Notes: a model not told the origin generated them from the sequence alone. Positions 12,467-51,933 are shown, counted from the first letter of the stretch. The stretch: DNA of 64,000 bases from an uncultured delta proteobacterium (GCA_963769935.1 CAVYNY010000010.1:704001-768000); one strand, 5' to 3'. Translations and numbers: made by a program.

Positions 12467-12695
12467 GTTGAATTCTATTGCTTTAGCCTGTTGATTCCGG
12501 TTCCGCAGGGCGGACCATTTTAAAGATCATCGTACCGAATATGCCCAGAAGGTGCCGATAGCTAGTGGGCTGCGGTTATCGGTATCGTCAAAACCAAACA
12601 ACAATCCGTCCTCAATTTCGAATTTAGCACCGCATTCCGGGCAGCCGATCTCGTTGCGCCCGAATCCAACGCATCGGTTCAGGCAGAACGGGCAT

Positions 12696-13799
12696 TTAAA
12701 TAAAAGCGACCATTTTCTGCCGCCCCTCATCCCACATTTTCAGTCGAATGCAAGAAAGGCTTTTGACGATTGTAAGCGGCGTTTTTCCTTGCAGCGCCGG
12801 AACGGCATCGTAACACTTCTTCAGACGGTAATTGGGGATTCGAGGGCTCAAATGGTGGACATGGTGATAACCGATGTTACTGGAAAACCACCGCAGCAAA
12901 GCAGGCAATTTGTAAAATGAACAGCCTTCCATGGCGGCGCGCAGTGGCTCCCATTCGCCTTTGTGTGCCCAATATCCCCCAGGGAACTGATGCTGCACGA
13001 AAAACAGCCAAATTCCCGCCGCCCCTGCAAAACACAGCACCGGAAACTGGATCAGCAGGTACGTTCGCCATCCAATAAACCGATCGGCAACCAAAACCAT
13101 GACGACGATCAGCAGGTTGGTGAAAAGAACGCTCGTTCGTTCTTTGCGCTTCACCCATCGCGTCGGCAGACGGTTTCTGAGCAGAAACATGAACAGCGCA
13201 CCGAGTCCCAGCATCACCACGGGATTGCGGTAAAGCCTGTACTGCAGACGTTTCTTCTCCGATGCGTTCTCATATTCCGTGCTTGTCATGGTCCAGATAT
13301 CGCCGAATCCCCGCGCATCAAGGTTGGCGTAAGTCACGTGGTGTCGAAGGTGGGCGAAGCGCCAGTCTTCAAAGGGAGTGAACACCATCACCCCGAGAAG
13401 GTAGCCGAAGAATGTGTTGACGCCCTGCCACCTGAAGAACGAACCGTGCACACAGTCGTGAAATAAAATGAATAACCGGACCATGAAAGCGGCGGCAGGC
13501 AAGGCGATAATCAGAGTCAACGCGTAAGAATAGCCGAGCTGAATAGAGCGGATCATCAGATACCATAGGCCGCAGTAAGGGACTATCGTGTTTATCAACT
13601 GCCAGATGGCTTTCCGGTGGTCGGAATTTCGGAAAGTTGCCAGCAGCGGGTACCAATCGGGCCAAATGCGTCCTGGACTTTTACTTTTTGCATTGCTTGG
13701 GTCCATGCCCGATTCATGCGCGACCATTTTCAAACCTCCGCCTAGCTGTTCCTCCCTTCGAGGCTTGGCTTCGCTATGCCGGGGCATTTTCTCGTTCAA
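12696..13799 (-). CDS. Membrane fatty-acid desaturase (B. subtilis Des-like); start uncertain
   Basis: Three His boxes HDCVH, HLRHH, HHVHH; VQHQF; IPNYRL. Confidence 0.92.
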   Translation of the reverse strand: MNEKMPRHSEAKPRREEQLGGGLKMVAHESGMDPSNAKSKSPGRIWPDWYPLLATFRNSDHRKAIWQLINTIVPYCGLWYLMIRSIQLGYSYALTLIIALPAAAFMVRLFILFHDCVHGSFFRWQGVNTFFGYLLGVMVFTPFEDWRFAHLRHHVTYANLDARGFGDIWTMTSTEYENASEKKRLQYRLYRNPVVMLGLGALFMFLLRNRLPTRWVKRKERTSVLFTNLLIVVMVLVADRFIGWRTYLLIQFPVLCFAGAAGIWLFFVQHQFPGGYWAHKGEWEPLRAAMEGCSFYKLPALLRWFSSNIGYHHVHHLSPRIPNYRLKKCYDAVPALQGKTPLTIVKSLSCIRLKMWDEGRQKMVAFI

Positions 13800-13883
13800 A
13801 GGGGTTAACGAAAAGCAGCCGCTCCGTATATTTATTGCTTTTCAATGCAGGCTAAAATCAAAAAATAAACCCTTACGACCCTA

Positions 13884-16520: not shown

Positions 16521-16589
16521 GTAGGGTGGGCATTGCCCACCGTTAACCATCGAGACAGGCGCTATTTGGTGGGCGATGCCCCACCCTAC
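16521..16589. repeat. Inverted pair of GTAG-type REPs
   Basis: GTAGGGTGGGCATTGCCCACC...GGTGGGCGATGCCCCACCCTAC. Confidence 0.85.
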
Positions 16590-16782: not shown

Positions 16783-17979
16783 CTATTCGAATACCTCAGC
16801 CCCTGTCGGTTCGACATGGGTCGTCTCATTCATATCCTGCCGGAATTTGGATAATTCATAATACATTCTCAGGCGGGCGCGGTTCTGATTGCCGAGCGGT
16901 CGATGTTCCGGCAGGCAGTGCCAGGGGTTCATTTTCAGCCGCTTGGCAAAGGCAAACTGGGCTTCGGAATCAAACTTCTGCTGTGGGATGTGTACGGTAG
17001 CCGCCGGAATAAAGGGTGACAGTTTTTCCGGCCAGCGCACCGCGGCGTTTTCGATCGGCATTAAAAACGGATCCGTCTGGACTTGAATCAGAAGATCAAA
17101 TTCCACATCTTTCCGATTCAGGGTTTTGATCATGTTTTCCCGTAAATAATTGAATGAGACCCGACCGAAGGGCACTCCGGGCACCCTGGTATCGACTTTT
17201 GTTTTCGGCCGGAACGAATACATCATGGCCTGGCCTTCACCGAGCAGATAGGGGGTGCAGCTCCAGTAGCGCTGTCCCAGCGGGTTGTACTGGGTTTCAT
17301 TCCACAGACTCTGCATCAGCGCATCGAGAAGGTGCGTATCCTTGGGGTTTACGAAGTAGTACAGCGCCATCTCCAGCAGGCTCCAGTACTGCAGTTTGGC
17401 ATTTTCCCGCGTGTTGGGCGTGACAAAGGTCGGAGTGCAGATAGTGATGAAATCCTGGGTGAATTTCTCCTCGTCCATGAGTTTTTCACCGGGTACATCC
17501 ATGAGTTTGACGGCCATGCTGGCAAAACCGACATCCCGAATATCGGCCGGAACATCCGGGCCGGGGCCGGAGTATCGCACATAGGCCGGGTAACTTCGCG
17601 GGTTGGCGAATATTCCCCTGCGGCAGCTTTCGGGCAGGTCGTCTCGAATGGTCACGGTCGCCCGCAGGATGCCGTGCGTTTTTGTGTTCCCGCCGCGTTC
17701 ATAGGCGCCGGGTTTGAAATGCCCGCGCATCTGGTCGGCCATGAGGTCGATGATTGCATCCAGGCTTTCCTTTTCATCGGGATCTGCTTTTTCCTCGGCC
17801 AGCTGCAGGCCTTCATCCCTGCGCCGCAGGTTAATGAGGTACTGAATGACCCTGGCGATGGGTTCCCGGAACAGCCGGTTCCACTGCGGGCGAAACAGCG
17901 GTTCGAGCCGGCGCTCGATATGCAGCAATTCCATGAGAATATCATGAATGAATTTCAGCAGTCGCATCTTGATGTTCAT
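16783..17979 (-). CDS. Catalase-related (catalase-fold) heme protein
   Basis: YPAYVRYS, YWSCTPYLLG, MPIENAAVRW, NPWHCLPEHRPLG..NRAR..MY (proximal Tyr). Confidence 0.85.
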   Translation of the reverse strand: MNIKMRLLKFIHDILMELLHIERRLEPLFRPQWNRLFREPIARVIQYLINLRRRDEGLQLAEEKADPDEKESLDAIIDLMADQMRGHFKPGAYERGGNTKTHGILRATVTIRDDLPESCRRGIFANPRSYPAYVRYSGPGPDVPADIRDVGFASMAVKLMDVPGEKLMDEEKFTQDFITICTPTFVTPNTRENAKLQYWSLLEMALYYFVNPKDTHLLDALMQSLWNETQYNPLGQRYWSCTPYLLGEGQAMMYSFRPKTKVDTRVPGVPFGRVSFNYLRENMIKTLNRKDVEFDLLIQVQTDPFLMPIENAAVRWPEKLSPFIPAATVHIPQQKFDSEAQFAFAKRLKMNPWHCLPEHRPLGNQNRARLRMYYELSKFRQDMNETTHVEPTGAEVFE

Positions 17980-19507
17980 GGCGTGTTGCCGCCTTCGTTG
18001 TTGGATGATGCAGCAATGAACTGCAGGGCCCGCAGTCCGGGCATGAAAAAATAACCGCCGCCGCGCACCATTACAAACTGCGGCAGACAGCAGGTTTTGT
18101 GCATGGGACCGCTCGGGTCGGGTCGATTGAAATTATCGGTTGCCTCACCCTGCAGCAACGGCTCGCGAATTCCAAACAACGGATCCCTTTCCTGCTGGAC
18201 ACCGCCGAAAGTACTGCTCATCGACCAGGCGTTCTGGATAAATTCAAACTGCCGCGAGATACTGGCAGCCAGAGCGATAAACTGCAGGCCATGCTCGGCC
18301 AGCCGGCGCATCGGGTTTGACGGCCTCTTCCGGTGCCAGCAGGGGCCCGTAGCTGCGGCCGCGCCGCAGCAGGCGATGGAAGCGGGTGGAGGCGATCAGA
18401 TCTTCATCCGGTCGACTTTGTCCAAAACCGAGCATCTTGATCAACCGGGTGACAAGGCCGGTCGCGCCGGGCGGCAAATCACCGGTGCGCGGGTTGGCCC
18501 TGCGAATATGGGCGCCGAGCGGGCATCGATGGCCGCCGGGGTCGAGTTCGTAGGTAAAATGGTTGACGTCGTCCTCCGGTGGGATGCCGGGAATCGGTTT
18601 GGCAGCCAGGGGTGCCAGCGGCGAACCGCTGCGTTGTCTGCCCACCATGCTCGCGGCAAGCTGTTCGCGTTTTTCGGGGTCGGCGCCGGCTGGCCTGGTC
18701 GACGAACTGCCAGAAGCCGGTAACATCCTGGTGCAGCTGCCGGATGACAAGGTAGGACCCGTTGCGTCCGAGATCTTTTAATGCAGGCGTCTTCCTGCGC
18801 GTTCGGCAGGCGCGAGGCGAGCCGGTCTTCCAGCGGATCGATGAGCGGTCTGGTGGTGATACAGTCCGTATTCGTTGGGGTAGCCGAGCACGAATTCACC
18901 GGGGGCCACCCGGTTGGAAAAGCGGTCGCGTGCGTGCGGATCCGTGCTTTGCCGCTGGGCCCAGTCTATTTGCGGCTGACTGATGCCATCGGCGAATCCA
19001 AACGGCTCGATGCTCCCGATATCCTGGGTCGGCAGGATCTGCAGCAGTTGAAAGGCCTTGGAAAACCATTGGTCGGCCACGGTTTTTTTCCAGGCTTCGA
19101 CACCGTCTTTTCCGGCATAAAGCAACAACAGCACATGCGGCACCCGGCCCGGTTCTCCGCCCCACTCCCAGTGCTGCGGGGCATTGCGGCCCACGTCGCC
19201 CAGACGGCGGGAGCGGCTTTCATCGCCGGACATGCCGGTGATGAACTCATCGGAAAAACCCTCGATAATGGATTCCTTGAGCCCCAGTGCCCGCAGCCCT
19301 TCCACTGAAAAAGCAATCTGCAGGGCTGTGTCGGGCGGTCGGGCTCTTGGCGCCGGCGCTGCTGACCGGAGCCGTGGCCAGCCACTTTCCGGCAGCCGCC
19401 GCATCCGCAATATTGAGCAACATGAAACAGGTGTCGGTTAATTTGCCGTGGCCGAAGCGTAAAAGGGCCTGCAGATCGTCAAATTCAAAGTCGCTGGCAT
19501 CATTCAT
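17976..19507 (-). CDS. DyP-type peroxidase, split by several frameshifts
   Basis: EPFGFADGISQP, MVGR.RSG.PL, CPLGAHIRRANPR, RLLRRGRSYG, GLQFIAL..SISRQFEFIQNAW across frames; ATGA overlap with the next gene. Confidence 0.85.
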
Positions 19508-19521
19508 TGCCACTCTCCTGC

Positions 19522-20834
19522 TCATATCAGGCTAAGCCATTCGCGGATTTCCGCGTCGCTGGACTGGCGGATTTCCACTCCCTGCCGAATGCGGCTGTTG
19601 CGCGATAATTCGAATGCGGTCAGGCCCGGGTAAGCCTTATACCAGACCTGCGTGGGCAATTGATGTCGTCTCAGGGAATACTTGAATTTCTGTTCCCGTT
19701 CCGCCCCGTCCTTAATCAGCCATCTGGTTGTGGGATACCCCATGCCGTTGCTGAACACCAGGTTCAGTCCCCAGGCAACCTTATTGATGAAGTCGTCCAT
19801 GTAACTCTCCAGGCTGCCGTCATAGTTGCTGGCAAAAAGAAGACTGCGGTCGTTGTTCATGAGCACCCAGCGGGCGAAATGAATGGTTCGCACCCGCGTG
19901 AGAAAGCCGCGGTTGTAGATATGTCTGGCGGAATAGTCGAGCAGCACGAGTAGCAACTTGAGTGTACAGCGGCGAAAAGGCCCCGGCTTGACATCGCCCA
20001 GCACAGTGAACTGATTGCTGACGTCATGATCTTCCAGCTCGGAAAGTTCCCGGACATGGCGCCGGTCAGGCCGGATGACGATCTCGGGGTCGGAGCGCTC
20101 CAGCATCCGCAGCCGCCAGGCGAAAAAGGGCGCAGCGGCCAGCAATACCGGTGACAGGACCAGCAGCGACCAGCGGTATCCCGACCTTGTGCAGCAAGTT
20201 TTTGATTTTCCAGTCCCAGGGCGTGGGCTCCGGCGGTGTCAGCGTGAGCCGTCCGGCATGTTTTTCCTTTTCAACATGCGACAGGAGCTTCTGCCGGATC
20301 GCGCGGGTGTTCTCCCGGCCGTGGTTGCGACGATTTCCTGCAAACAGGCGGACAGGCTTTGATGCAGGGCCCGTTCTTCGTGCACCTGTTTGACGGTGCG
20401 GCCAATCCAGTTGATATAATTGGCGCTGGGGTTGATGTTGTGTTTTTTCATCCATTGCAGCAAAGCCGTGCTGATCCTCGGAAAAGCCTTCACAGATGGG
20501 AAAATATTTTCTCCAGACCCGGGACCGGCACATCAACGGTGAGTTGTTCCAGAAATGAGTCCCGATCGCCGTCCAATCGCCAAGAAACGCCAGTGACGGG
20601 CGCCACGCATGGGGCGTCAGACCGTATACCTTTATATCATCGGCGGTCTTTAGCTCCAGAATCACAAATCTGGCCACATGCAGACGATCGAAGCGGCCGA
20701 AAGGAACCAGATCGTTCGCCGGAGTCGGCGTGTCCGCACGGTATTGTTCATCGTGGCCAATAGGGCGCGCAGGCTCATCCATCTGCCCCTCGCGGATAGC
20801 GGCGACTAATCAGGAAAGTGGATTGAGGCGTCAT
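19522..20834 (-). CDS. DyP-associated protein with a central TM segment, frameshifted
   Basis: Starts MTPQSTFLI; repeated motif LHVARFVI and IHFARWVL...LLFASNYDGSLESYMDDF. Confidence 0.7.
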
Positions 20835-20882
20835 GGCTTCTATCCGGAGTTGGTACTCGTCATGTATGAAGATTTGTCGGCT

Positions 20883-21340
20883 CTATGAATGCACATTCCG
20901 GGTCAACGCAAAATCCAGGACACGTTTTTTGCCCCACCAGACCTTGCCGAGATACACTCCGGCTTCGACTTCGCGGATTTCATCCCGAATGGCTTTGGCA
21001 AAAAATGAGGTTTTGGAGTAATCGATGACGATGGTGTCTTTCCCATCCAGCCAGCTTTTACCCCGATAGACCTTGGCGACAATCAAATGTCAGGCTGAAG
21101 AGGCGTTATCTTGTTGACCAGAATGCCCGACTGGCGATCCGATGAAAAAAGATCGAACACTTTGCCCTGCCAGGCAAAGATTCGCGCCAATGCGGCCACG
21201 GATTTTCGAAAAGGTCGAACCTGCCAGGATTGCGGTGCCCTGGGTATCTCCACGGGGATCTCCCCGGGTTCGGCATTGCGGTAGATTTCATCAAGTTCCT
21301 CTCGGGATTTGCTCAACCATGTTTTGACCGTCGGATGCAT
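20883..21340 (-). CDS. Conserved hypothetical protein of peroxidase clusters, frameshifted
   Basis: WQGKVFD, AKVYRGKSWLDGKDTIVIDYSKTS, IRDEIREV..GVYLGK. Confidence 0.7.
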
Positions 21341-21346
21341 GATTCG

Positions 21347-22385
21347 TTACTCCTTGTTGCGCAGTTTGGCTGCATGTTGGCATAGACCAGCCGCCGTACC
21401 GCATTCATCCTTCCCAGTGGTTCGTGGGCAGCCAGGCTTTGCCAGGGATTGAAGCTGCTGCGCTCGCAGGCTGCCAGGGAATCCTCATCATCAAAGTCCT
21501 GATTTTTGATGGTAATGGTTGCAACCGTCTGGAAAGGGTGATTCGTCTTCATCCCAGATAACCGAGGCATCCTCGATCGGCATGGTTTGAGGGTCTGTTC
21601 TGTCTCTGAACGCCAAAATGAAAACAGGCGGTTTCCTGCTGCAGATGAGCCTTGATTGCGGCGCGCAGCTGGTTTTCACCCGCATCGACGGCCCTGGTGG
21701 TTGTATAGCTCGAACAGGGCGTGACGGAGTATTTGACGACCTGACCCCCAGTTTCCCCCAGCCGGAAGGGAACCGTGCTCCAGTAGCGGATATCCAGCGG
21801 ACTGAGGTGTTTTCTGCGCGCCTTGAAGACGATCCACAACGACTTTCAGATGCGGATCGAAGGGATTTAAAAAGAAAAGCATTTCTTGTCCCTCCTGCCG
21901 AGCGCGTATAAACGCTAAAAAATCTTCCGGCGTGGCGACAAAAAGCGCAGGATAGCTGTTGAGCACAAAATCCTGCATGCCGGGTTCACCCCAGATAACC
22001 GTGGCCGCTTGACATTCGATACCTTGATCGACAGGCCGCGGATATCTTTTTTCGAATCATCCATGTTGCTGGCGTTGGCAAAGCGCAGCATGGCCGGATA
22101 GCTGGCCGGCTGCGAGAAGAGTCCGTGCTTCAATTCATGCGGGCATATCCTCATGCACCCGAAATTCTGCCTGCGAGGCAGGCCAACCGTTTTCGGCTGG
22201 TTGAATCTGGGGATGAAACCAGTTTTGGCCTCGGCCAGGGTGATGGCTTCCACCCGCTGGCTCATTTCGGCAACCAGCTGATCAATGGTTGCCCGGCTGT
22301 CATTTGGGCCGCGGCCGTCGGGAAGCATTCCAACAAGGCTGATCTCTGCCGGCGGCCAATGCTGAAGTCGTCTTTTGCTGGCCAT
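21347..22385 (-). CDS. Second catalase-related heme protein, frameshifted
   Basis: YPAMLRFANAS..DDSKKDIRGLSIK, QDFVLNSYP, YWSTVPFRLG, MPIEDASVIW, FNPWQSL..HEPLGRMN.VRRLVY. Confidence 0.8.
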
Positions 22386-22398
22386 GTTCACTTCCGCA

Positions 22399-25328
22399 TT
22401 AGGGTTCTGAGAATGCAGGATCTGATTCCGCGTCGGGTCGCGGTTTCCAGGCCAGGCTGTAATATTCACCCCGATCCCGCGCCCAGGGATCAAACGCATT
22501 TTTGACATGCATGAGTTCGTCCTTGAGTTCCGGGATATTGCGCATCAGCAGGCGTTTGAGCGGCGAGACCGCCACGGTATGGCCGTTGACCTGCTCCGGT
22601 TCCAGACAGGCCTTGCTGCCGTCGGTCTGGGTGGTAACCGGATAGGGGCATTCGGCCAGCAGGCCATTATTCATTACCCAGTCATAGCCGAGGGTGGAAT
22701 AAAACTCCGGACGGAAACTGGAGGTAAAAAAACGATCGCTGAACAGTCGGCGTGAAGCGTTGATGATAAAGATCTGGAACTGGGTCTCGGAAATGGCAAA
22801 CCCATGCGGGCGTGTATATTCAGCCAGCCAGCCGACGACATTGTCGACGTCCTCGATATTGTCCACCACCGCGCCGTCCGGGTGGCCCAGGCAATCGTTG
22901 ATGAAGGTGCCGTCTTCATTGCGCTGGGCCTTGGAGATGATTTTGCCGGCATCGCAGGTGTGGGTGCCGTAAATCTCCCGCATGCGTCGGATGGTTTCTT
23001 CCTGTTGTTGGCGCCAGGGGTCTTTCGGTCCAGGCGATGATCAATAAAATCATCGAAGCTGGTCAGGTTTCTCAGGCCGATTTGACGGCGAAATTCATTA
23101 AACCGGGGAATGCCGCGTTCACGATCACGAATCAGGTCGAGGGCGACAATATCGAGTTTTTTCGTTTCCGAGTTCAGGTGCGGCATCGGCAGGTTCTGAA
23201 GGAACAACGGCAGGTTCCGCAGATGCAGCAGTCCCAGTCGCTGACGTCCCATGCTCAACGCCCAGTTGTCGAGGCCGCGTTCATGCATCTGGGCGGTGGC
23301 GCCTCCCCTTGCGGTATCGAATACGGGAATTTTCAGACTGATCTTGTTGGGGTCCTGCTTTTGCCGGAACTCGATCAGGTCGGGCACCAGGGCATGCAGA
23401 CGATAAACGGATGTGAATTCCTCCGGAAAATTGAAGGGCGAGCCGAAATGGTTGGTGCCGCCATTGACATCATCTTTGAGGTTAGTCAGATCCCAGCCAT
23501 CATGTTCCCACCAGAGCACCCCCTTGGGCTTTTGTGTTGCCGAGACCGAAAATACCGGCACCGGATGCGAGCACCGAGTAGATGGAGTTGGCTTTACCGG
23601 CATCCGACGAACTCGAAAACCAGCCGGCCACTGTTCCGGAGATCCGGCTGAAGAAATTTTCATCCTTGTGCAGTACGCGCCGCAACAGTTTCGAGACCCG
23701 ATCTTCTTTCTGATTGAAGAGACCGAACCAGTTGGCGTTCATGGCCTGATAGAGCGGCTCGTCATATAACAGCTGGGGGGTCCACTCGATGGTATGGATT
23801 TTGGCGATCTCCGCCGCCACAACCAGGCGGGCGGCCTGATACAGGCGTTCATCCGGAACATCCTTGTAGGCAATGATCTTTTGTGGATTGTCCGGGTCGC
23901 GCAGTCCGGAGTCGGCATCAGGGGTCTGTTTCTGTAATTCTCTGAACTTATCGACAAAATAATTATGCTCGCGGGTGAACAGGTTGTGATAGAAACTCAG
24001 GCCGATGTTCCAGTTGTCCGGGAAAGCGGCGGCTTCCTGACCCTGCCACTGGGGCTGCACGGGGCAGTCGGCAGAATAGCTCTCACAGGCCGGCATCACG
24101 GGCAGGTAGTTGTTTTTGAAGAGAAACTTGGCCGGATCTTGCGGGTCGCGCTGTACGCGCTTGGATGACAGATCATCGTAACCGTAGATCTGGGAGGCAT
24201 CCCACCAGGCGGTGACAAGGTTGTCGGTGGTTTTAGGTGAACGTTTCAGGTACGTCTGGCCGCCATATTCAAAGGTTGGCGGGGCAGTTTCCCGGGCATA
24301 AAGTGATGGTTCGAGGCGGTCGCCTTCACGGCACCCCAGTGATTTGGCTTCTTCGGATGTGCAGCCGACCGGTTGCAGCTCAGGTTTGTTGCGGCCTTCA
24401 TCGGTGTGGGAAAACCAGTCATGCGTCATGAATTGAATCCAGAATGCCGCCAGGACATTAAAGAAAGGCGCTTTTAAGATAATCGCACGATGGCATTCGG
24501 CGAGTAGGCCGCATCCCCCATTCCCAGGTTGCACCCGTTGCCTTCGGTTTGCTCGCGGGTGAATAGCTTTCTGCTGATCAACTGCGGATCCGGTTTGAGC
24601 AACCCGATTCGGTCGCCGTGCCGGTTGCGCGTCAGTTCATTCAATTCCAGCCGCGGAAAGGTTGTATCAAACTGCATATTCCGGCCGAACGGCATACCGG
24701 TAGAACCCATCAGGGGGTTGATCAGATCATTGCAGATGCCGGTCAGGGTTCGATAGGCAATCAATGAACCCTTGCACAACTGCGGACCGTCGCCGCCCAC
24801 CTCCTGATAAAATTTGTTGCCGGGCGGCAGGCGCATTTCATCCCACTGTTTCAGTGTCGGACCTGGCCGGCTGTCTTTGCCCTGGATGTATTCTTCGTAG
24901 GTATTCTGATCGAAGAGATTGAATTTGATCAGTTCCATACGCTGGTATTCCAGGTCAAGCAGTGCGCCATCGATTCCCCGGCCATTCGGGAAAAGATGTT
25001 CGCCGATTGCGGTAACGGCGTCTCGGCCTTCGTGTTTGCTGCCGGCATCGCCCGTCGCATAATAATTCTGCCAGTCTACATACGGTGAGCTGCGATAATC
25101 CACAGCCTTTTCACCACCGCGACAGCGCGCCGTATCCTCCCGGACCTTGCCTAGGAACCGTTGCGAAGGGTCATCGGGAATTTTCAGAAAGCCGCGTTTC
25201 GCAGATGATATACAGGCCTCAATTTCACTTTCACCAGCAGCATGTGCGGGATAGGCGGCCAGAAATGGTGCCAGAAGCGAAACCGCCGCAATAATCCGAA
25301 TGCTGATCGACGGTATGTGCTTTTTCAT
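22399..25328 (-). CDS. Exported peroxidase-cyclooxygenase superfamily enzyme, fatty-acid alpha-dioxygenase-like; frameshifted
   Basis: Signal peptide ending PAHA; WIQFMTHDW, IAKIHTIEWT, EEFTSVYRLH, RDRERGIPRFNEFRR, GFAISETQFQIFIINASRRLFSDRFFT. Confidence 0.88.
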
Positions 25329-25722: not shown

Positions 25723-26781
25723 ATGCCGACTGCCGAACTTTCCGATCTGAAATTTGAGCGTCAAACCATCTTCGCAAAATTCATCGATCCCGCCGGGCAG
25801 ACAGCCGAAAGATCCATTGAAATCCGTACCCACCCCATTACCGGCCGCACCTGCCGCATCACCTTCAGCCGCATCCATGAAAAGGAAGCCGGAGCCAATT
25901 CACTGCCCCAGCCGCCGCCCAATGCCGGCGAAACCTCCCGGTGCCCTTTCTGCCGGCCGCGGGTAAACTCAGGAAACCCCTCGACTGCATCCCGACATAG
26001 TGCCTGATGGCCGCCTGGTAAAAGGAGAGTCGATTCTTTTTCCGAATTTATTTCCCTACGGCAGTTATTCGGCCGTCAGTCTGTTCAACGACGATCACTT
26101 CGTGGAGATTGGAACGGCTTCGAGCTCATCTTATGCCGACAGTTTTATGAACTCCGCCGCATATCTGAAAAAAGTACTTCATCACGACCCGCAGGCAATA
26201 TATATGGCCGTCACCCAGAACCATCTGCCTTCGGCCGGCGGATCTTTGCTGCATCCCCATCTGCAAATCAACGCCGATCGGATTGCCGGAAATCACCATC
26301 GCTTTCTGCTGCAAAAGGCCGCTGGCTTCCACCGGCAAAACGGTCAGTATTTGTTTTCCAGTTACCTGGCGCATGAAAAAGCAGAAGGGTCCCGCTATAT
26401 CGGCAGCAACCGGCAAATGGGAGTGGATGGCAGCCTTTGCCCCGGAAGGTTTCTTTGAGATCTGGGGCATTCTGCCCGAAGTTACTTCTTTTCAGAAAGT
26501 GACGGCCGCCGGCTGGCAGGAATCTGGCCCGGGGCGTTATCTGCACCCAGCACTTTTACCGCAGCCTCTGCCGCAACGGCTACAATCTCGGCTTGCTGTC
26601 GGTTGAGACACCCGCCAGCAGACTTGAACTGCGGGTCGTCATCGTGGTGCGTTCAAACTACGCCCCCTGGGTGCGCAGCGATATTACCGGCTATGAAGTC
26701 ATACTGGGCGACATGGCCACCTTCGTCGCGCCGGAGCAAACCGCCGCCTGGGCCCGACCGTTTTTTCCGGAAAAATTTTAA
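25723..26781 (+). CDS. GalT/HIT-superfamily nucleotidyltransferase, frameshifted
   Basis: EIRTHPITG, CPFC, FPNLFPY, SAGGSLLHPHLQ. Confidence 0.8.
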
Positions 26782-26788
26782 AAAGCCT

Positions 26789-28078
26789 TCAGTTTCTGTC
26801 CCCAATCGGCGCAGCAAAGGCATCCCGTACCAGGATCTCCACGTTGTCGCCGGTAAGCGACTCCAGAAACACGACAATCTGCGCCGTCTCTTCATTGGTC
26901 AGCCCGAGCGGACGGATGAGGGGATCAAGCAGGGGATTGGGGACCCCGCCCCGGTTGTAGAATTCAACCACCTCCCTCAAAGTACCGAAGGTACCGTTAT
27001 GCATATAAGGCGCTGTGAGCGCAACATTTCTTAACGTCGGGGTTTTATAGCGCCAGCGGTCGGCGGGATCCTGCGTGACCTCATACCGGCCGAGATCACT
27101 GGGGGGGCGCTCACCGACGCTGTTTACCACACTTCGCGGCACCGGCACCTTAAGCCCGGGGGCGATCTGGACCTGAACCTCGGGCGGGTCGCCGCCGACC
27201 GATACCTGCCAGCCCAACCCCGTATTGTGGAAGGCATCGTCGGTAAAAAGAGCGTAATCTTTCCCAATCGTATGGCAGGCGGCGCACCCGGCTTTGCCCT
27301 TGAAGAGTCTGAAACCCTGCCGGGCGGATTCACTGAGGGCCTTTTGGTCCTGCCCGAAATACCAGCGATCGAAGGGGGAATCCCCGGAGACAAGTGTCCG
27401 CTCGTAGGAGGCGATTGCCATCCCGATGGTTTCAATCCCCGGTCCCCGCCCGTCGAAGGCGATCTCAAACAGCCCCCTGTAGTCCGGCAGACTGCGGATC
27501 TTCTCGATCACATCCCCGATGCTCGGGTTGGCCATTTCATTGGATGCGAGTATCGGCTGCCAGATCTGATATTCCAGACGAATCTCCCGGCCGTCGTCAA
27601 AGATATGGGAAAAGTAGGCAACGTTGTAGATGGTAGGTGCGTTCCGCCGCACGGTCCTTCCCTCGATTCCGACCGCAGTGGCCAGCTCGTTGTTGGTGAA
27701 GCCCTGCTCGGGAATGTGGCACATGCCGCAAGACATGGTCCCATTCAAGGAAAGCCGGCGATCAAAAAAGAGCTTGCGCCCCAGCTGCACCTTGGCATAT
27801 GTCACCGGATTATCCGGCGGCACGGGTATGAACGGCAGACCCAGAGGAGGTGATTTCAAAACCGCCATGAGGTCCGCCGCTTCGCCCTTGCGCTGCAGCA
27901 AACTGATGGAGCGGCTTTCATAATCGGGGGTTTCGTACCCGGTGCGGTTGTCTCCGGGCCCTTGCGTTACATCCGCACTCCAAGCATGGCCGATTAAAAT
28001 CGCCGGCACCATCGCCAATAATCCGCAATATGCGAAGAGGCGGACAAACGCGGCATTTGGTTTACGAATTGGCGTCAT
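26789..28078 (-). CDS. Diheme cytochrome c peroxidase, MauG/bCcP family
   Basis: LGRKLFFDRRLS, CGMCH, RNAPT, CAACH, YKTPTLRNV, PYMHNG; signal peptide. Confidence 0.92.
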   Translation of the reverse strand: MTPIRKPNAAFVRLFAYCGLLAMVPAILIGHAWSADVTQGPGDNRTGYETPDYESRSISLLQRKGEAADLMAVLKSPPLGLPFIPVPPDNPVTYAKVQLGRKLFFDRRLSLNGTMSCGMCHIPEQGFTNNELATAVGIEGRTVRRNAPTIYNVAYFSHIFDDGREIRLEYQIWQPILASNEMANPSIGDVIEKIRSLPDYRGLFEIAFDGRGPGIETIGMAIASYERTLVSGDSPFDRWYFGQDQKALSESARQGFRLFKGKAGCAACHTIGKDYALFTDDAFHNTGLGWQVSVGGDPPEVQVQIAPGLKVPVPRSVVNSVGERPPSDLGRYEVTQDPADRWRYKTPTLRNVALTAPYMHNGTFGTLREVVEFYNRGGVPNPLLDPLIRPLGLTNEETAQIVVFLESLTGDNVEILVRDAFAAPIGDRN

Positions 28079-29397
28079 GGCTTGTACAGGGCGTAGGCCC
28101 CGAACTTCATTTCATGGGGACGACCCAGCTTCTCACGGGTGAAGTCGATGACAAAGCGCTCTTTGAGCTCCTTGCCGTCCCACGTGAAGCTTTTTATAAA
28201 CTGCTCGTTGTCGTTGCCTTTTTTGTCCCATTTGGACAAAAGCGAACTGGTAAAGTAAAGCCGTTTGCCGTCCCAGCTGGAAGAGACCATATTCACCTGA
28301 GATCCGATCTGCTTTTCATACACCTGTGAAGGATGAAACGGATCGGATATGTCGAAAGCCCGAACCTTGCCCTCCAGGAAAGTAGTCGCCCACAACAACC
28401 GGTCATCGGCGGAAATCGTGAAGGCCGGCGGAAGCGGCACCTGAGCCGGGTCCCCTATGTCGGCAACATCCCTGGCCTGCCAGATACCCTGCTTATCGCG
28501 ATATACGAGCCAGATCTTGGAAGTAAGCGCGGCGACCGTAAAGACATAGTCATGCGCCGGGTTGATTGCGCAGCGTATCTCCAGCGGCGCACCGGGTATG
28601 TCGAAAATCTTGAGCGGTTTGCGATCGCTCAGGCGCCAAACGACAAAGGTATTGCCGAAACGCTTCATGGCCTGTTCATCTTTGAGCATCTTGCCAAAAT
28701 CCATCATGTAGTTGGACCATCCGGTAAAAGATGAGGTGAACATAGCGTCCAGCCGCGGCATGCCGCGCACGTCGTAATTGTAGCCGTCCGCGTATTTGCC
28801 GGTCTTCCGCGCGCCTTGCAGGTTGTCATCGGTCGGCATCCAGTAGGTGGCCGCATATTTTCCGTCGGCGGTGTACTCGACCAGGGCCGAGCGGCCGCCG
28901 TGGTCGCGGTTGTTGGAAAGTCCGGTAATGAGCATGTGATCCTTTACGGGCATGATCGTGTGGGGACCGACCACACCCCCGCTCTGGGCCACGAAGTCGG
29001 TTATGGTCCCGACCAGCCGCGGTCGGGCCGGATCGGAATGGATGTCAAAGATAAATATTTTGCTGGTGTCCAGGGAGGCCCCCCACAGATAGCGCCGGTC
29101 AAATGTCAACCCCATATGATGGACCTCGTTTCGTCCGCCCACGGACGCCGCATGCACAACTTTGCCATACTGCGGCGAATCCGGGTTCACAGCGATGGTA
29201 ACCAGCTTGTCCTGTTCATCTCCGATTCCTTCGGTGCCGAGTGTCCAGACGTATACAAAATCCTCTTGCCCGGTTATTTTTACCATATCGGCCGGCAATC
29301 CGGTTTCGTTGGCCCAGGCTGAAAAGGTTGCCGGGTTAAGGGCGGCCGCGAAAATGATGATCGCGGTTCCCAAGAGACCTTTTCTTAAAGCTTTCAC
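28075..29397 (-). CDS. mtoX: Selenium-binding protein SBP56 family, methanethiol oxidase-like
   Basis: ITGQEDFVYVWTLG, NEVHH, GPHT, TSSFTGWSNY, YFTSSLLSKWD, PHEM; signal peptide; ATGA overlap with the MauG-like gene. Confidence 0.85.
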   Translation of the reverse strand: MKALRKGLLGTAIIIFAAALNPATFSAWANETGLPADMVKITGQEDFVYVWTLGTEGIGDEQDKLVTIAVNPDSPQYGKVVHAASVGGRNEVHHMGLTFDRRYLWGASLDTSKIFIFDIHSDPARPRLVGTITDFVAQSGGVVGPHTIMPVKDHMLITGLSNNRDHGGRSALVEYTADGKYAATYWMPTDDNLQGARKTGKYADGYNYDVRGMPRLDAMFTSSFTGWSNYMMDFGKMLKDEQAMKRFGNTFVVWRLSDRKPLKIFDIPGAPLEIRCAINPAHDYVFTVAALTSKIWLVYRDKQGIWQARDVADIGDPAQVPLPPAFTISADDRLLWATTFLEGKVRAFDISDPFHPSQVYEKQIGSQVNMVSSSWDGKRLYFTSSLLSKWDKKGNDNEQFIKSFTWDGKELKERFVIDFTREKLGRPHEMKFGAYALYKP

Positions 29398-29728: not shown

Positions 29729-32245
29729 TCAGTATAATAGGTAGCGACTCCGCAATTGCTGCCACTGCTTTTCATCAGCTTTCCAGATTTGCACGACGCG
29801 GGCTGGATCTTCGCCCGCCAATATGTGACTCAGCACCGTTTCAGACCCCAGCAGGCTATCTTCTTCTTCCAGACGGTATTCAGCCGGATACAGGCGGTGC
29901 AGCATTGAGGCAACTTCCAACCCCAGGCGCACAGGTTGGAGTTTCTGCCGATCGGTTAGCAGGATGAAAACGCCCTGGCATCTCTCGCCGGCAAATTTAC
30001 TCGATTGGGGAGTAAATGAAACCGGGTAAAAGCGAACGCCCGCAAGGTTTCTTGCATTAAGCTCCGAAGCCAGTTGGACCCCGACGATCCAGGGCGCACC
30101 GACCTGCTCAAAGGGGGCGTCGGTTCCGCGCCCCACTGATATTCGGGTTCCCTCAATGGCGCCGATTCCTGGATACAAAGTGGCCTGAATCAAGTTGCGT
30201 ATGTTGGGTGACGGATTCACCCAGGGCAAGCCGGTCTCATCAAACCAGTATTGGCGCCGCCAGCCTTTCATTTTTACGACGATTAATTCTGCTCCGATAT
30301 CATTTTCACCGTTAAATAGTTGCGCCAACTCTCCCATAGTCAGGCCGTGCCGGACGGGCATGGGAAAATAGCCCGTAAATCCGATAAATTCTCGATTCAG
30401 AATGGGGCCTTCAATCTGAAGACCGTTGATAGGGTTGGGACGATCCAATACCATGAATCTGATCTTTTGTTTGGCCGCTGCCTCCAGCAGGTAGGCCATC
30501 GTCGTCATGTAAGTATAATAACGCGTACCGATATCCTGCAAATCGACAACGACTGTGTCAATACCGGCCAGCATTTCAGCAGCAGGTCGCAAGCTTCTGC
30601 CGTAAAGCGAATGGATCACCAGACCGGTTTTTTTATCGCGCGATGAGGGCACGCGATCGTCAAGGATTCCCTGCACGCCGTGCTCCGGGCTGAATAGAGC
30701 AAATAGCTGCAGATTAGTCGCCCGATAAAATAAATCGATTGTACTTGCGCCGTCTCGCGCTTGCCCGGTTTGGTTGGTCAGCAGACCGATTCTCCTCCCC
30801 GCCAACCGACCAAAATTCTCTGCTCGCAGCACATCGAGACCGCTGAGAACCTGACCGCGGGGCTGAGCAGTTTCCGACAACAAATTCAGCCGCTGAATAC
30901 TTGCGGCGTTGCGCCCCTCGGTCGGCTCGTCTGGTTTAGCCTGGCCGGCCGCAACACTTGCGGCGATCGTGATGATATTCTCGCGCAGATCGAACACATC
31001 TCCTTCTCCGTCGGGATGAACCCGGTTGGAAAGAAATACCACATATAGTCCGGACTCAGGATCGAGCCAGAGTTTCGTCCCGGTAAACCCGGAGTGGTCG
31101 ATCGGCAGCCGTGAACGCTTTTCGCTGCCGTCAGTATAGGTTGTATCCAGATTCCAGCCGAGAGCGCGAATATAGCCGCCACTCAAAGGTGTTGACGCTG
31201 AAATCATGGTGTTGATTGTTTCAGGTTTTAATATGGGGGTTTGGCCGAATGTGCCGCCTCCCAGCAGCATCCGGCAAAAAATGGCAAGATCATCCGCCGT
31301 GCTGAAGAGCCCGGCGTGCCCCGGCCCGTCGCCCATCCGGCGAGCAGCGGGATCGTGAACCAGTCCGCGAAGGATCGTACCATCCGGGCCTCCGCAGGGT
31401 TGAAAGGTATTCCGGCAGCGCTCGGTCGGCGCAATCCGAGATCGCATGCTTAGCGGCGGATTATACATTGTGTCGCGCATTCCCAGCGGCTTAAAGAGAT
31501 GCGCATGCGCAAACTGATCGAGGGGCATTCCGCTCACACGGCGAACGATTTCACCCAGCAATATAAAATTCAAGTCGCTGTATACGATGCGCTCACCGGG
31601 TGCAGTTACCGGCACATCATCCACGATCTGTTCAATTGCCGCTCGATATCCTTTCCATTGCAGCGCCGGATTGAAACCGGGTCTCAAACCCGACATGTGC
31701 GTCAACAGATGTCGCACCGTAATTTTCGACTTACCGTGACGCTCAAAATTTGGGATATACTTGGCTACCGGGTCTTCAAGCGAAATCCGGCCGGCTTCGA
31801 TAAGCTTCATTATGCTGGGTGTTGCGGCGACAACTTTGGTAAGGGATGCCAGATCGAATACCGTATCGGCTGTCATAGGCTCCAAGGCTGGAACTACGGC
31901 ACGACGGCCGAAAGCCTTGCGATAAAGAACTTGATCTTTTTGACCGATAAGGATCACGGCGCCCGGCAGTTGGTTTTCCCGGATGGCCTCCTCGACTAGA
32001 TCATCGATCCAACAGAGATCTGCGTTACCAGGGGAATCGACCGGATCGGCAATCGGCACTTGATTCTCGGGGATCTGATAAGCCGCACGAGCAGCTTTTA
32101 CAGGGCCGCATGTGATGATTAGCAATAACGCCAGCAGGGCCTTGTAGCTTCGCCTCCCGGTGAAACCGCAATTCTTTTCGGAACAAGCGATGCTTTTATG
32201 GTCATACCCTTTAAGGACTTCTAAAGTTGGCCACATAATAGTCAT
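29729..32245 (-). CDS. Beta-lactamase-fold serine hydrolase fused to a DUF1343/NamZ exo-beta-N-acetylmuramidase; start uncertain
   Basis: FDLASLTK (SxxK), LLTHMSG, YSD, HSGFTG; then LTNQTG, FSPEHG, DLQDIGTRYYTY, LDRPNP, PSPN. Confidence 0.92.
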   Translation of the reverse strand: MTIMWPTLEVLKGYDHKSIACSEKNCGFTGRRSYKALLALLLIITCGPVKAARAAYQIPENQVPIADPVDSPGNADLCWIDDLVEEAIRENQLPGAVILIGQKDQVLYRKAFGRRAVVPALEPMTADTVFDLASLTKVVAATPSIMKLIEAGRISLEDPVAKYIPNFERHGKSKITVRHLLTHMSGLRPGFNPALQWKGYRAAIEQIVDDVPVTAPGERIVYSDLNFILLGEIVRRVSGMPLDQFAHAHLFKPLGMRDTMYNPPLSMRSRIAPTERCRNTFQPCGGPDGTILRGLVHDPAARRMGDGPGHAGLFSTADDLAIFCRMLLGGGTFGQTPILKPETINTMISASTPLSGGYIRALGWNLDTTYTDGSEKRSRLPIDHSGFTGTKLWLDPESGLYVVFLSNRVHPDGEGDVFDLRENIITIAASVAAGQAKPDEPTEGRNAASIQRLNLLSETAQPRGQVLSGLDVLRAENFGRLAGRRIGLLTNQTGQARDGASTIDLFYRATNLQLFALFSPEHGVQGILDDRVPSSRDKKTGLVIHSLYGRSLRPAAEMLAGIDTVVVDLQDIGTRYYTYMTTMAYLLEAAAKQKIRFMVLDRPNPINGLQIEGPILNREFIGFTGYFPMPVRHGLTMGELAQLFNGENDIGAELIVVKMKGWRRQYWFDETGLPWVNPSPNIRNLIQATLYPGIGAIEGTRISVGRGTDAPFEQVGAPWIVGVQLASELNARNLAGVRFYPVSFTPQSSKFAGERCQGVFILLTDRQKLQPVRLGLEVASMLHRLYPAEYRLEEEDSLLGSETVLSHILAGEDPARVVQIWKADEKQWQQLRSRYLLY

Positions 32246-48776: not shown

Positions 48777-48971
48777 TGACAGCACTCCTTTCCAAAGGGT
48801 TTTAAAGTCGCATCATCTTAGTTAATAGACGTTTTTTTTGCAATAGATAAAGAATCCCGACCATCCCAACCACCTGAAAGGGGTTGATATAATCTACTCA
48901 ACTATGTATTGTTGACAGCTGTTAAGTCGATCGGTTTAGTGGATATTTTACAGAAATTCTGGTTGGACAAA

Positions 48972-50876
48972 ATGAATTCGATTCCGCAGTGGCGATTTCG
49001 CAAGATGCAGCCCGGGGAGATTAATGTCGATCCCATTGAAGGTGAGTTTTTCACCACCGAAGCCATCGGCAGCATCACCGATGCGCTGGTCCGCGAATCT
49101 ATTCAGAATTCTCTGGACGCGGCCGAAGGAGACGGGCCCGTAACGGTATGCTTTTCGTTCTATTCCGGTCCCAGCCGGGGATCCGCCCCCCGGGAGGTTA
49201 TCGAGACCTACCTGAACGGTCTCAGCCCCCATCTTCAGGCCAAACACTCCGGTTTGCAGGATCTGCCGTCCATCGCGGAGAACCTCGAGTATATCTTAAT
49301 TGAAGACTACGGCACCCGGGGCCTGCAGGGCGATATTCGCCAGTATGACGACCTGGATGATGACCTCCGCAAAAATGATTTTTACTATTTCTGGCGCAAT
49401 ATCGGCCGCACCCGCAAAGAGTCGGCCGATCTCGGCCGCTGGGGACTGGGCAAAACCGTCTTTCAGGCCGCCTCCCGGATAAACGCCTTCTACGGGATGA
49501 CCGTCCGCCGGGACGACGGCCGCGCGCTGTTGATGGGCCAATCCGTTTTAAAAATCCATAAAGTCGCTGGAACCCGGTATGCTCCCTACGGTTATTTCGG
49601 ATTGTTTGACGGTGAACTCGCTCTACCGGTGGAAGACCAGACCGATCTGGCAAACTTTGCCGACCGGTTTTTAATCGACCGGTTCGGCAAACCGGGCCTG
49701 ACTGTCCTGGTTCCTTACCCGGACAAGGAAATTAATGCACCGGAATGCGCCAGGTCCGTCATCAAACACTATTTTTTCCCAATTCTTGCGGGACGCTTAA
49801 TTGTTGTCGTTAAGCACGCCGGCAAAATATGGCAGCTCAACGCCGTCTCCCTTGATGATCTCCTTAAAAAATCACGCTTCCCCGAAAGCCAGGGCATGCT
49901 CGGCCTGCTGGATCTGGCCCGCTGGGCCATCAGACAGCCGCAAGAGAACTATATCAGCCTCCAAGAACCAATAACCGGCCGGGCTCCCAAACTCAGAGAA
50001 GATTTATTCAGCTCCCATGACCTGACGGAACTTAGAGAAAAATTTGCGAACGGAGAACGTCTGGCCTTTTACGTACCGGTCACCATCCGGCGGCAATTCA
50101 GCAAAGATTTAATGCACTCCGGTTTTACGCTGTACCTGGAGCGGGATGAAGGCCTACCCAAGGCCGAAGATCATTTCATCCGCCAGGGAATCACCATACC
50201 GGAGGTAACCGCTCTCAAGCACAACGGCGTGCGCGCCATTGTTTCCATTGCCGAGCATCAGCTGTCCGCCTTCCTGGGGGATGCCGAAAATCCGGCCCAC
50301 ACCGAATGGGAGCGCAACTCCAAAAAATTCAAAAAACGTTACAAACTGGGCCCCTCAACCCTGGATTTTGTAAAATCCAGCCCGCGGGAAATTGTGAAAA
50401 TCCTCATGCGGCCTCAAAAGGGCCGCGATGAAAATTTATTGAAGCACATTTTTTCCCTGCCGACGGATGCGGCCGCAGCCGGAAAAGCAGCCCCCAAAAG
50501 CGGAGGCGCTGCCGCCGGACGGGCTGCTGAAATCATGAGCAATGGTGAAATCATCGAATCCCGGGACGAAAATTATCTGCAGCTCAGCCCGATCAAAGGC
50601 GGCTTTAGCCTGGCCAAAAAAGCGAAATCGAAGCGGGTTCCCCGGTATATCACGGTCTGGTTGGCCTACGAGGTCCGCACGGGCAACCCGTTTAAAAAAT
50701 ATACTTCTCTGGATTTTGATGTCGGAAAGCCGCCGATATCCATCCGGGTAACCGGCGCCGGCCTATTATTAAACAAGCACAATGTGATCCAGATCGAGGT
50801 CCGGCAAGGAAATTTCAAGTTGACGGTTACCGGTTTTGATACCAATCGCGATCTCCGGGTAAAGACGAACCCCTAA
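48972..50876 (+). CDS. GHKL (Hsp90/MutL/MORC-like) ATPase-domain protein of unknown function
   Basis: LVRESIQNSLDA (ExxxN..DA), IEDYGTRGL (DxGxG-like), LGRWGLGK (G2). Confidence 0.8.
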   Translation: MNSIPQWRFRKMQPGEINVDPIEGEFFTTEAIGSITDALVRESIQNSLDAAEGDGPVTVCFSFYSGPSRGSAPREVIETYLNGLSPHLQAKHSGLQDLPSIAENLEYILIEDYGTRGLQGDIRQYDDLDDDLRKNDFYYFWRNIGRTRKESADLGRWGLGKTVFQAASRINAFYGMTVRRDDGRALLMGQSVLKIHKVAGTRYAPYGYFGLFDGELALPVEDQTDLANFADRFLIDRFGKPGLTVLVPYPDKEINAPECARSVIKHYFFPILAGRLIVVVKHAGKIWQLNAVSLDDLLKKSRFPESQGMLGLLDLARWAIRQPQENYISLQEPITGRAPKLREDLFSSHDLTELREKFANGERLAFYVPVTIRRQFSKDLMHSGFTLYLERDEGLPKAEDHFIRQGITIPEVTALKHNGVRAIVSIAEHQLSAFLGDAENPAHTEWERNSKKFKKRYKLGPSTLDFVKSSPREIVKILMRPQKGRDENLLKHIFSLPTDAAAAGKAAPKSGGAAAGRAAEIMSNGEIIESRDENYLQLSPIKGGFSLAKKAKSKRVPRYITVWLAYEVRTGNPFKKYTSLDFDVGKPPISIRVTGAGLLLNKHNVIQIEVRQGNFKLTVTGFDTNRDLRVKTNP

Positions 50877-50970
50877 TTAATCCGCCCTGAAAAATTGCGT
50901 ATTCAGGGTTTTGAAATATTCAATCTAAATTGTAGAAAGTCGCTGGATTAAAGGTCCGGCGGATTAATTA
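50874..50970 (-). mobile_element. 97-bp MITE, copy 3 (inverted relative to copies 1 and 2)
   Basis: TAATTAATCCGCCCTGAAAAA...AAGGTCCGGCGGATTAATTA is the reverse complement of the copy 1/2 ends. Confidence 0.85.
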
Positions 50971-50972
50971 TT

Positions 50973-51734: not shown

Positions 51735-51830
51735 AAAAAAATTAAAATTTTTATTTGATTTAAGCTTTTTCTTAATTGGACACGGATAAACACGGATTGC
51801 ACAGATATATTTTCGGGGATCAGAGGCGGC

Positions 51831-51907: not shown

Positions 51908-51933
51908 AGGCGTTAAACCTGGAGATTTAGATA

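Follow-up and report, generated by a model that had tools for sequence, protein, structure and literature searches.

What might a bacterium do with four haem enzymes encoded side by side, one of them of a type best known from plants? The question is raised by a stretch of DNA of 64,000 nucleotides from an uncultured delta proteobacterium (GCA_963769935.1, CAVYNY010000010.1:704001-768000; hereafter the window), in which positions 16,783 to 25,328 hold an operon of six genes, A to F, headed by an alpha-dioxygenase-type gene. An earlier sequence-only reading had described six tightly packed minus-strand genes and proposed a multi-enzyme route that oxygenates fatty acids and converts the hydroperoxides into signal or defence molecules. 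Our analysis indicates that the operon probably serves the alpha-oxygenation of fatty acids in the cell envelope, followed by processing of the hydroperoxides, with A and B acting outside and C together with D-E-F inside the cell. The coordinates (25328-16783) bear out the described order and packing:

25328-22399, minus strand: gene A, alpha-dioxygenase-type haem protein, 975 aa in intact relatives
22385-21347, minus strand: gene B, small catalase-fold protein of the y4iL-like group
21340-20883, minus strand: gene C, 150 aa, predicted lipocalin-like beta-barrel
20834-19522, minus strand: gene D, internally duplicated ferredoxin-like protein, ABM-type alpha+beta barrel
19507-17976, minus strand: gene E, class V (C/D) dye-decolourising peroxidase (DyP)
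17979-16783, minus strand: gene F, second catalase-fold protein, 398 aa, intact

The intergenic gaps measure 13 nt (A/B), 6 nt (B/C), 48 nt (C/D) and 14 nt (D/E), and E and F overlap by 4 nt.

A predicted alpha-dioxygenase at the head of the operon

The product of gene A matches the Pfam family An_peroxidase and, in a profile and structure-sequence search against the PDB, the alpha-dioxygenases (alpha-DOX) of rice (E 5e-55) and Arabidopsis (2e-51), the next best match following at 5e-5. The motifs by which it had first been recognised, KIHT (23805), EEFTSVYRLH (23423) and ASRRL (22791-22744), can all be located in the window. For a residue-by-residue comparison, the published list for alpha-DOX was used in rice 4KVJ numbering with the +3 offset of the PDB construct (PMC8720084). 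A retains His157, Tyr379, His382, Phe375, His311, Trp315 and Thr316, as well as Ala331, Phe549, Phe552, Ile553, Ala556 and Arg559, and has Leu in place of Met325; Leu53 and Arg57 of the rice enzyme are not alignable to A, and 10 of the 11 alignable channel or stacking residues are identical. In alpha-DOX, His311 and Arg559 bind the carboxylate and Thr316 positions the alpha-carbon (PMC8720084).

These features extend across the full-length relatives: the catalytic Tyr379, the proximal His382 and the stacking Phe (EEFxxVYRLH) occur in 138/139, the distal His157 (QFMTHDW) in 139/139, His311/Thr316 (KxHTxEWT) in 138/139 and Arg559 (NASRRL) in 137/139, the misses including truncated open reading frames (ORFs). 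The gene is widespread, with at least 563 confirmed matches in a scan of GTDB.

The N-terminus of A combines a basic n-region, a hydrophobic h-region and an AxA end, which together resemble a Sec-type signal, and carries an extension of about 160 aa that found no match in the PDB; both signal and extension had been claimed from the sequence and are seen here. By a simple hydrophobicity rule, which is not a trained predictor, an h-region is present in all 122 scored N-termini of relatives, 48 of which are lipobox-like and none Tat-like. Every available residue test and strong structure matches to alpha-DOX alone uphold the first assignment: as judged from its sequence, A is of the fatty-acid alpha-dioxygenase type, and the formation of 2-hydroperoxy fatty acids is predicted. 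Such acids, the known products of alpha-DOX, decay to C(n-1) aldehydes and 2-hydroxy acids (PMC8720084).

Frame breaks in the assembly

In the assembly, frameshifts break five of the six genes, F alone being a single open frame. A has three breaks, near 24479-24492, 23534 and 23026, and B to E have several each, yet all catalytic motifs are readable in one frame or another. Taken at face value, these breaks would mean an operon that is dead in its host, a reading with which the absence of A from the 60 relatives and 300 genomes of the host's class that were searched would agree. However, short-read contigs from the same or close strains carry compensating indels at, among other sites, 24479/24492, 23534, 23026, 22181, 22172, 22138, 22009, 22002, 21844, 21375, 20777 and 20736; the DNA runs behind them are X1-X3, the RNA-library runs X7, X11 and X14, and not all of the runs show every site. 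A single X11 contig covers 22454-25413, nearly all of A, with four gaps. Run X1 may come from the sample of the window itself, X2 and the RNA runs being from other studies. It matches the window exactly over 925 nt of F but departs from it at 46 letters and 13 gaps between 19318 and 20934; the assembly is therefore poorly polished in the middle of the operon.

Because of these compensating indels, the frame breaks are assembly errors, and the dead operon named in advance as the outcome that would overturn the sequence-only reading is not borne out; we give real frameshifts practically no probability. The neighbouring gene outside the operon suffers similar indels (25971, 26407, 26521), every catalytic motif is intact, and a complete 975-aa protein (P0001) aligns to the four pieces of A at 92-97% identity. 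ORF coverage, 0.59-0.62 across the genome compared with 0.57-0.89 for ten loci, is too blunt a measure of frameshift density. The RNA-library contigs over the operon stem from three runs of one study and document its presence in a sediment metatranscriptome, transcription, strand and level not being readable from contigs.

Two catalase folds without the distal histidine

The proteins encoded by B and F are both small catalase folds, 31% identical to each other. An intact relative of B matches Pfam Catalase (E 1.5e-7), and the profile matches of B comprise 3E4W, the coral catalase-related allene oxide synthase (cAOS, 1U5U) and catalases, with a Gln aligned to the catalase His (6RJR). F received no family from Pfam or NCBIfam, and its profile yielded a weak match to cAOS as the only hit, with an Asn on His67. 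In the window, B can be followed through RFNQPK (22208, Gln at the distal His), DFVLNS (21972, distal Asn) and the proximal R-x-x-x-Y (21414-21382), and F through RGGNTKTHG (17697, Asn at the distal His) and RLRMY (16875, proximal Tyr). The T-H of the former F motif lies four residues downstream of the distal column and matches the K-x-H-G of the family.

A wider alignment, made of the 102 of 150 catalase-fold representatives that cover the domain, sets these substitutions in context. The distal column holds His in 85/102 of the wider relatives, Gln in 66/66 B proteins and Asn in 47/48 F proteins, the sole His among the latter belonging to the Deinococcus protein; the proximal Tyr is present throughout (66/66 B, 48/48 F). 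At the site of the distal Asn137, Asn is found in 66/66 B and Val or Ile in 48/48 F, and it is replaced in 100/102 of the wider relatives. A motif count over 72 B-type ORFs leaves six off the Gln pattern: y4iL itself and the protein of locus L075 have His, and the other four are unmatched. The two families form separate supported clades, and a single origin of the His loss is not rejected (approximately unbiased test, p 0.208; 42 selected rows).

Catalysis by coral cAOS uses Thr66, His67 and Asn137 (PMC5617202), and the pair Thr66-His67 corresponds to Asn-Gln in B and to Gly-Asn in F. The earlier label of catalase fold is right as to the fold, but the distal His of catalases and cAOS is in neither protein, and the suggestion that the two act as allene oxide synthase (AOS) or hydroperoxide lyase (HPL) is not supported. 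By their residues, B and F fall outside two known groups: cAOS or the catalase-related hydroperoxide lyase (cHPL), His67 and the preceding Thr66 being absent and F also being without the distal Asn, and typical (KatE) catalase, there being no distal His in R-x-x-H-x-K-G. Even a His-bearing member of the family, DR_A0146, is reported to be without catalase activity (review PMC6300522).

A hydrophobic leader is found in 50/66 relatives of B, 1/41 of C, 0/34 of D, 0/47 of E and 3/44 of F. The B of the window is heavily frameshifted, and its own N-terminus is unreadable; the F of the window has no signal peptide.

As a separate observation, the fusion partner of several His-bearing catalase folds (P0220, P0210, P0213, P0216, P0219) is an An_peroxidase domain or a RoxA-like cytochrome.

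The barrel proteins and the peroxidase

The product of C has no Pfam match at E<=1 and no NCBIfam family. Its AlphaFold2 model, of moderate confidence (predicted local distance difference test score, pLDDT, 68.8), describes an eight-stranded up-and-down beta-barrel closest to the uncharacterised protein Tcur_1030 (4MVE), the top Foldseek match (E 9.6e-5), followed by fatty-acid-binding proteins and lipocalins. In a comparison with 4MVE, 131 residues align (VIA Z 12.2, root-mean-square deviation, rmsd, 3.4), the lipocalins reaching Z 7 or less. The nearest named Atlas cluster to C, GXWXG/DUF4334 at 0.86, is a lead only, and the clusters of C and D themselves are unnamed. C has no signal peptide and is fused to a RoxA-like cytochrome in loci L053 and L126. 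C is likely a carrier of lipid or aldehyde.

D, likewise without a family in Pfam or NCBIfam, is modelled as two ferredoxin-like halves that form one ABM-type barrel (pLDDT 89.5). The halves align to each other (HHalign 94%, E 1e-7), each with an HxAR motif, and the best fold match is WhiE-ORFI (9LMN; Z 13.9, rmsd 4.0, 221 aligned). D has a single central hydrophobic window at residues 210-240, which would more likely be a re-entrant anchor than a membrane span because the two halves pack together in the model.

By its motifs and profile matches, E belongs to the class V (C/D) DyPs. It has GFADG (18999), the proximal His in GAHIRR (18516) and the distal Arg in HRLLRRGR (18378), which are retained in 42/49 (as GXXDG), 45/49 and 48/49 relatives, respectively. 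Its best profile match is the DyP of Deinococcus radiodurans (8RE3, E 2e-66), ahead of class V DyPs from fungi and other sources; against TIGR01413 it scores 68, under the cut-off of 100.5. E has no signal peptide. The D. radiodurans enzyme is inactive at neutral pH, and its natural substrate is described as not known (PMC10820274).

Conservation and exchange of partners

Co-conservation of the genes, the check proposed with the sequence-only reading, was examined in 160 loci, the best 80 from GTDB and the best 80 from metagenomes out of larger match lists. All six genes recur in the same order in 41/160, and the lipocalin-like C is kept in 78/160. The carriers include Desulfobulbia-type sulfate reducers, Sedimenticola, bivalve symbionts, Granulosicoccus and Alteromonas; the genes that flank the operon are not conserved across loci.

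In 83 loci, the sequence downstream of A extends for 5.7 kb or more. Among these, 42 have B-C-DE(F), 9 B-C-Rox, 3 P450-C-Rox and 3 P450-C-DE(F), where Rox stands for RoxA-like cytochromes and P450 for a cytochrome P450; the others comprise 2 with B-C only, 2 with P450-Rox, 1 with B-Rox, 1 with C-DE(F) and 20 with A alone. Over all 160 loci, B is present in 74 and P450 in 14, with one locus common to both, and D-E in 51 and Rox in 20, with none in common. A lipoxygenase-like gene directly adjoins A in 3/160 loci (L076:7804-9345, L131, L160). The Rox proteins are di-haem cytochromes that score over the cut-off of NF040606 and have two CXXCH and a PYLHNGSV motif. The latter motif has been described for PA2077/PA2078 of Pseudomonas aeruginosa (PMC4496055), the likeness being one of described motifs and not of direct sequence comparison. 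In these arrangements, a P450 can fill the slot of B, and a pair of membrane-anchored RoxA/FadCcp-like cytochromes that of D-E-F. Each of the alternative partners (P450, lipoxygenase, di-haem cytochromes) comes from a family with known activity on fatty acids or their hydroperoxides, and the exchanges point to fatty-acid (hydro)peroxide chemistry. Inspection of the I-helices of the partner P450s gave no clear assignment.

Gene fusions add to this picture. D is fused to DyP in 49/49 longer homologs; 17 of these fusions add a catalase fold (7 similar to F, with the Asn confirmed in 6, and 10 of the His type), and 7 bear the Pfam P450 label. The replacement of catalase folds by P450s in both slots suggests that these folds act on an organic substrate.

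Two sets of such genes were noted in their own right. P450-D-DyP triple fusions of 1400-1600 aa (L082:6823-11685, L083:6844-11175, L084:6883-11154; P0303, P0306, P0309, P0313) occur on alphaproteobacterial plasmids, some of them near adenylate-cyclase, SARP or TPR regulators. On pNGR234a of Sinorhizobium fredii NGR234 (L085:5194-13048), a y4iL-type catalase fold is flanked by RoxA-like di-haem cytochromes and accompanied by a second catalase-like fragment and a patatin phospholipase; by its gene content, this is a candidate lipid-oxygenation cluster on a symbiosis plasmid.

A proposed route and the case for two modules

In the route that we favour, A would be exported by Sec and, with the help of its haem and a Tyr radical, would introduce O2 at C2 of a free fatty acid. 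The resulting 2-hydroperoxy acid, left alone, would break down to the C(n-1) aldehyde and CO2 or turn into the 2-hydroxy acid. B, which in most relatives is exported or anchored to lipid, would sit beside A and steer this decay to one product, by controlled decarboxylation to the aldehyde, by reduction or by isomerisation; more speculatively, the carboxylate of the substrate might replace the missing distal His. The CYP152 peroxygenases offer an analogy for such substrate-assisted catalysis. Lipocalin-like C would then bind the hydrophobic product in the cytoplasm, where D-E-F, taken as one unit because of the gene fusions and anchored on the inner membrane by D, may convert it further or remove lipid peroxides. 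In this O2-tolerant sulfate reducer, the operon would likely serve to shorten fatty acids from the environment, or to detoxify them, in the presence of O2; the main alternative is the making of a signal.

A bolder form of this proposal is, in our estimate, doubtful, if possible. In it, an exported A feeds a new class of tyrosinate-haem proteins, in which the catalase His has given way to Gln or Asn and 2-hydroperoxy acids are handled by P450-like, substrate-assisted action; the membrane-anchored D-DyP-F would act on the first natural, lipid-derived substrate of a class V DyP; and P450s and RoxA-like cytochromes, interchangeable in their slots across sediment bacteria and sulfur-oxidising symbionts, would make up a new branch of bacterial lipid oxidation.

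Several observations weigh against the envelope route. The catalase-fold gene adjacent to A in L075 keeps the distal His, one His-bearing protein nests inside the B clade, and the distal His is kept in 10/17 triple fusions. Domains of the y4iL-like type that bear the His also occur in fusion with LodA oxidases, which produce H2O2 (PMC4417212). B is without a leader in 16/66 relatives, many of them Desulfobacterota, which weakens the argument for co-export of A and B in the host lineage. A stands alone in 20/83 loci, mostly more distant ones, and its partners are therefore dispensable. Moreover, the loci are related by descent, and the counts of mutual exclusion are descriptive rather than independent.

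Some of the evidence would also fit two independent modules, A-B-C and D-E-F, brought together only for co-regulation under O2 exposure, the former oxygenating fatty acids and the latter acting on an unrelated substrate, be it an aromatic, a porphyrin or organic peroxides in general. D. radiodurans has D-E-F by itself, with no PF03098 match in the 14 control genomes, and elsewhere D-E adjoins a P450, or is fused to one, where the surrounding 8-9 kb hold no annotated dioxygenase; the two halves therefore need not share a metabolite. Conversely, A-B-C occurs without D-E-F in L031 and L034, and F is missing from the whole genomes G063 and G065. The order and strand of D-E-F vary (L079, L096, L099, L101), and the best fold matches of D are polyketide-tailoring proteins. 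On the other hand, among 251 genomes of one gammaproteobacterial order, all 14 with a close relative of F, of the Asn-type lineage, also have A (three more have a close A and no intact F), and D-E-F and the Rox pair never co-occur beside A-B-C (0/160), as would be expected of interchangeable downstream steps. Two unconnected modules seem unlikely to us. What remains of the multi-enzyme route first proposed is its alpha-DOX, its conservation and the exchanges of partners, the last of which speak for fatty-acid (hydro)peroxide chemistry; a single route through all six genes is not supported in the same way, since D-E-F is separable and occurs also without alpha-DOX.

Host genome and flanking genes

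The host assembly (41 contigs, 8.0 Mb, 96.7% complete) encodes dsrA, KatG, two bd oxidases and four matches to the haem-copper oxidase family, because of which the host is predicted to be an O2-tolerant sulfate reducer. Since A was found neither in the relatives nor in the genomes of the class that were searched, the host lineage yielded no synteny. GC content is 0.563 in the operon and 0.512 in the genome, a weak hint of transfer only because the right flank is also at 0.546. Promoter and terminator scans gave signals at chance level only. One element was found about 190 nt downstream of F:

16521-16589, no strand assigned: repetitive extragenic palindrome (REP)-like inverted repeat, GTAG-flanked, given by its inverted repeat arms

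Similar copies lie on several other contigs (19 blastn-short rows including the repeat itself), and the repeat may end or stabilise the transcript.

A methanethiol oxidase gene, MtoX (28075-29397, minus strand; NF052453, 662.5 bits at a cut-off of 650), lies 2.7 kb upstream of the operon and is followed by a gene for a MauG/MbnH-like di-haem cytochrome c peroxidase (26789-28078, minus strand). MtoX is an O2-dependent sulfur enzyme, found here in a dsrA-bearing organism. Methanethiol oxidase makes H2O2. The association of MtoX with MauG is already in print (PMC5739008).

With such a neighbour, the operon might be viewed as a general defence island against peroxide and O2, in which the four haem enzymes remove H2O2 and O2 and the fatty acid is a sacrificial reductant. 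The respiratory oxidases of the dsrA-bearing host would suit this role, as would the intact DyP and the fact that no typical catalase was found in the genome, at 96.7% completeness. Yet both catalase folds are without the His needed for catalase chemistry, KatG is already present in the host, the nearest DyP to have been studied shows no activity at neutral pH (PMC10820274), a lipocalin-like gene is retained in almost half of the loci (78/160), and the MtoX neighbour is not conserved next to the operon in related loci. We regard a defence island as very improbable.

Further genes in the window were recorded as side observations. A frameshifted gene divergent from A (25723-26606, plus strand) has a weak DUF4921 match and presumably encodes a protein of the galactose-1-phosphate uridylyltransferase type, which it resembles in its motifs. 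A fatty acid desaturase gene (12696-13799, PF00487) lies within a segment of 1345 nt (12531-13877) that is present in X1 and missing from, and joined across in, contigs of three RNA runs of a related strain; the segment is a strain-variable insertion. At 29729-32245 (minus strand), a serine-hydrolase domain (Pfam Beta-lactamase family) is fused to a NamZ exo-beta-N-acetylmuramidase and adjoins genes for SPOR-domain and penicillin-binding proteins, forming a peptidoglycan recycling cluster. Three adjoining ORFs of 655, 253 and 239 aa at 48909-52650 (plus strand), none with a Pfam match, lie near a HerA-like ATPase (54118-56568, plus strand) and are possibly, together with it, a defence or mobile island.

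Relation to known systems

The closest counterparts of A are the plant and cyanobacterial alpha-DOX (rice 4KVJ/4KVK, Arabidopsis 4HHR/4HHS; CalDOX, LepDOX, CsDOX; PMC8720084), with which it shares the catalytic Tyr, both haem His, the stacking Phe, the carboxylate-binding His and Arg, and the Thr. While the known enzymes have about 620-650 aa, A has 975 aa, with a signal peptide, the extension of about 160 aa and several insertions, and heads an operon with five partner genes; the accessible account of the cyanobacterial enzymes mentions neither signal peptide nor partners (PMC8720084). According to the same account, few bacterial alpha-dioxygenases have been studied, all of them cyanobacterial and without partner enzymes.

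The linoleate 10S-dioxygenase (10S-DOX) of Nostoc punctiforme and its catalase-related 10S-hydroperoxide lyase likewise pair a dioxygenase of the peroxidase-cyclooxygenase family with a separate catalase-related haem protein (PMC9579011, PMC13049297). The carboxylate-binding residues of A point to the alpha-DOX and not the 10S-DOX type, and the operon has two catalase folds, both without the distal His, and encodes three further proteins, namely a barrel, one of ABM type and a DyP. Coral cAOS and cHPL have in common with B and F the small catalase fold and the proximal Tyr (PMC5617202), but their partner is a lipoxygenase rather than an alpha-DOX, and of B and F only B retains Asn137. A dioxygenase with a haem enzyme after it that converts the hydroperoxide is also the layout of the oleate-diol synthase PA2077/PA2078 of P. 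aeruginosa (FadCcp; PMC4496055) and of fungal dioxygenase-cytochrome P450 (DOX-CYP) fusions (PMC13049297). FadCcp-like cytochrome pairs and P450s appear here as exchange partners for D-E-F and B in related loci, not as genes of the window.

These resemblances would suit an oxylipin pathway, comparable to the dioxygenase with AOS or HPL of corals and Nostoc or to the autoinducer-forming oleate-diol synthase, that makes a diffusible signal or defence compound. The order of dioxygenase and catalase-related protein is that of the Nostoc pair, A and B are predicted to be exported, and the exchanges involve FadCcp-like pairs and lipoxygenase. Nevertheless, the His67 and Thr66 of cAOS and cHPL are missing in B and F, and among the neighbourhoods examined no receptor or regulator recurs beside the operon. 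Furthermore, enzymes of the coral and Nostoc AOS/HPL type require an allylic hydroperoxide, which the 2-hydroperoxy acid of a saturated chain is not; alpha-DOX products are generally not of this kind, and other signal chemistry is possible. A signal pathway is, in our view, decidedly unlikely.

For the second half of the operon, D. radiodurans provides the nearest parallel: a small gene, DR_A0145 (DrDyP, 8RE2/8RE3) and DR_A0146 follow the same order of D-like protein, class V DyP and y4iL-like catalase fold. The Deinococcus D-like gene is, by contrast, a single half without a hydrophobic segment, DR_A0146 keeps the distal His, and the genome is without alpha-DOX. Overall, the operon fits the known kind of a dioxygenase with a hydroperoxide-converting haem partner; among the matches listed from the open literature, no description of the gene set itself was found, subscription journals and supplements lying outside the scope of the search.

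Significance

The operon provides a genetic context for two questions, namely the cellular substrate of class V DyPs and the role of y4iL-like catalase-fold proteins. It is widespread, and several of its carriers are cultured, among them Sedimenticola selenatireducens, Desulfopila sp. IMCC35006 and, with the cytochrome variant, Alteromonas aestuariivivens, which makes the proposed functions directly testable. The predicted secretion and possible solubility of this alpha-DOX are of interest for aldehyde biocatalysis. If the proposed route is true, it would represent an O2-dependent way of shortening or modifying fatty acids at the oxic-anoxic boundaries of sediments.

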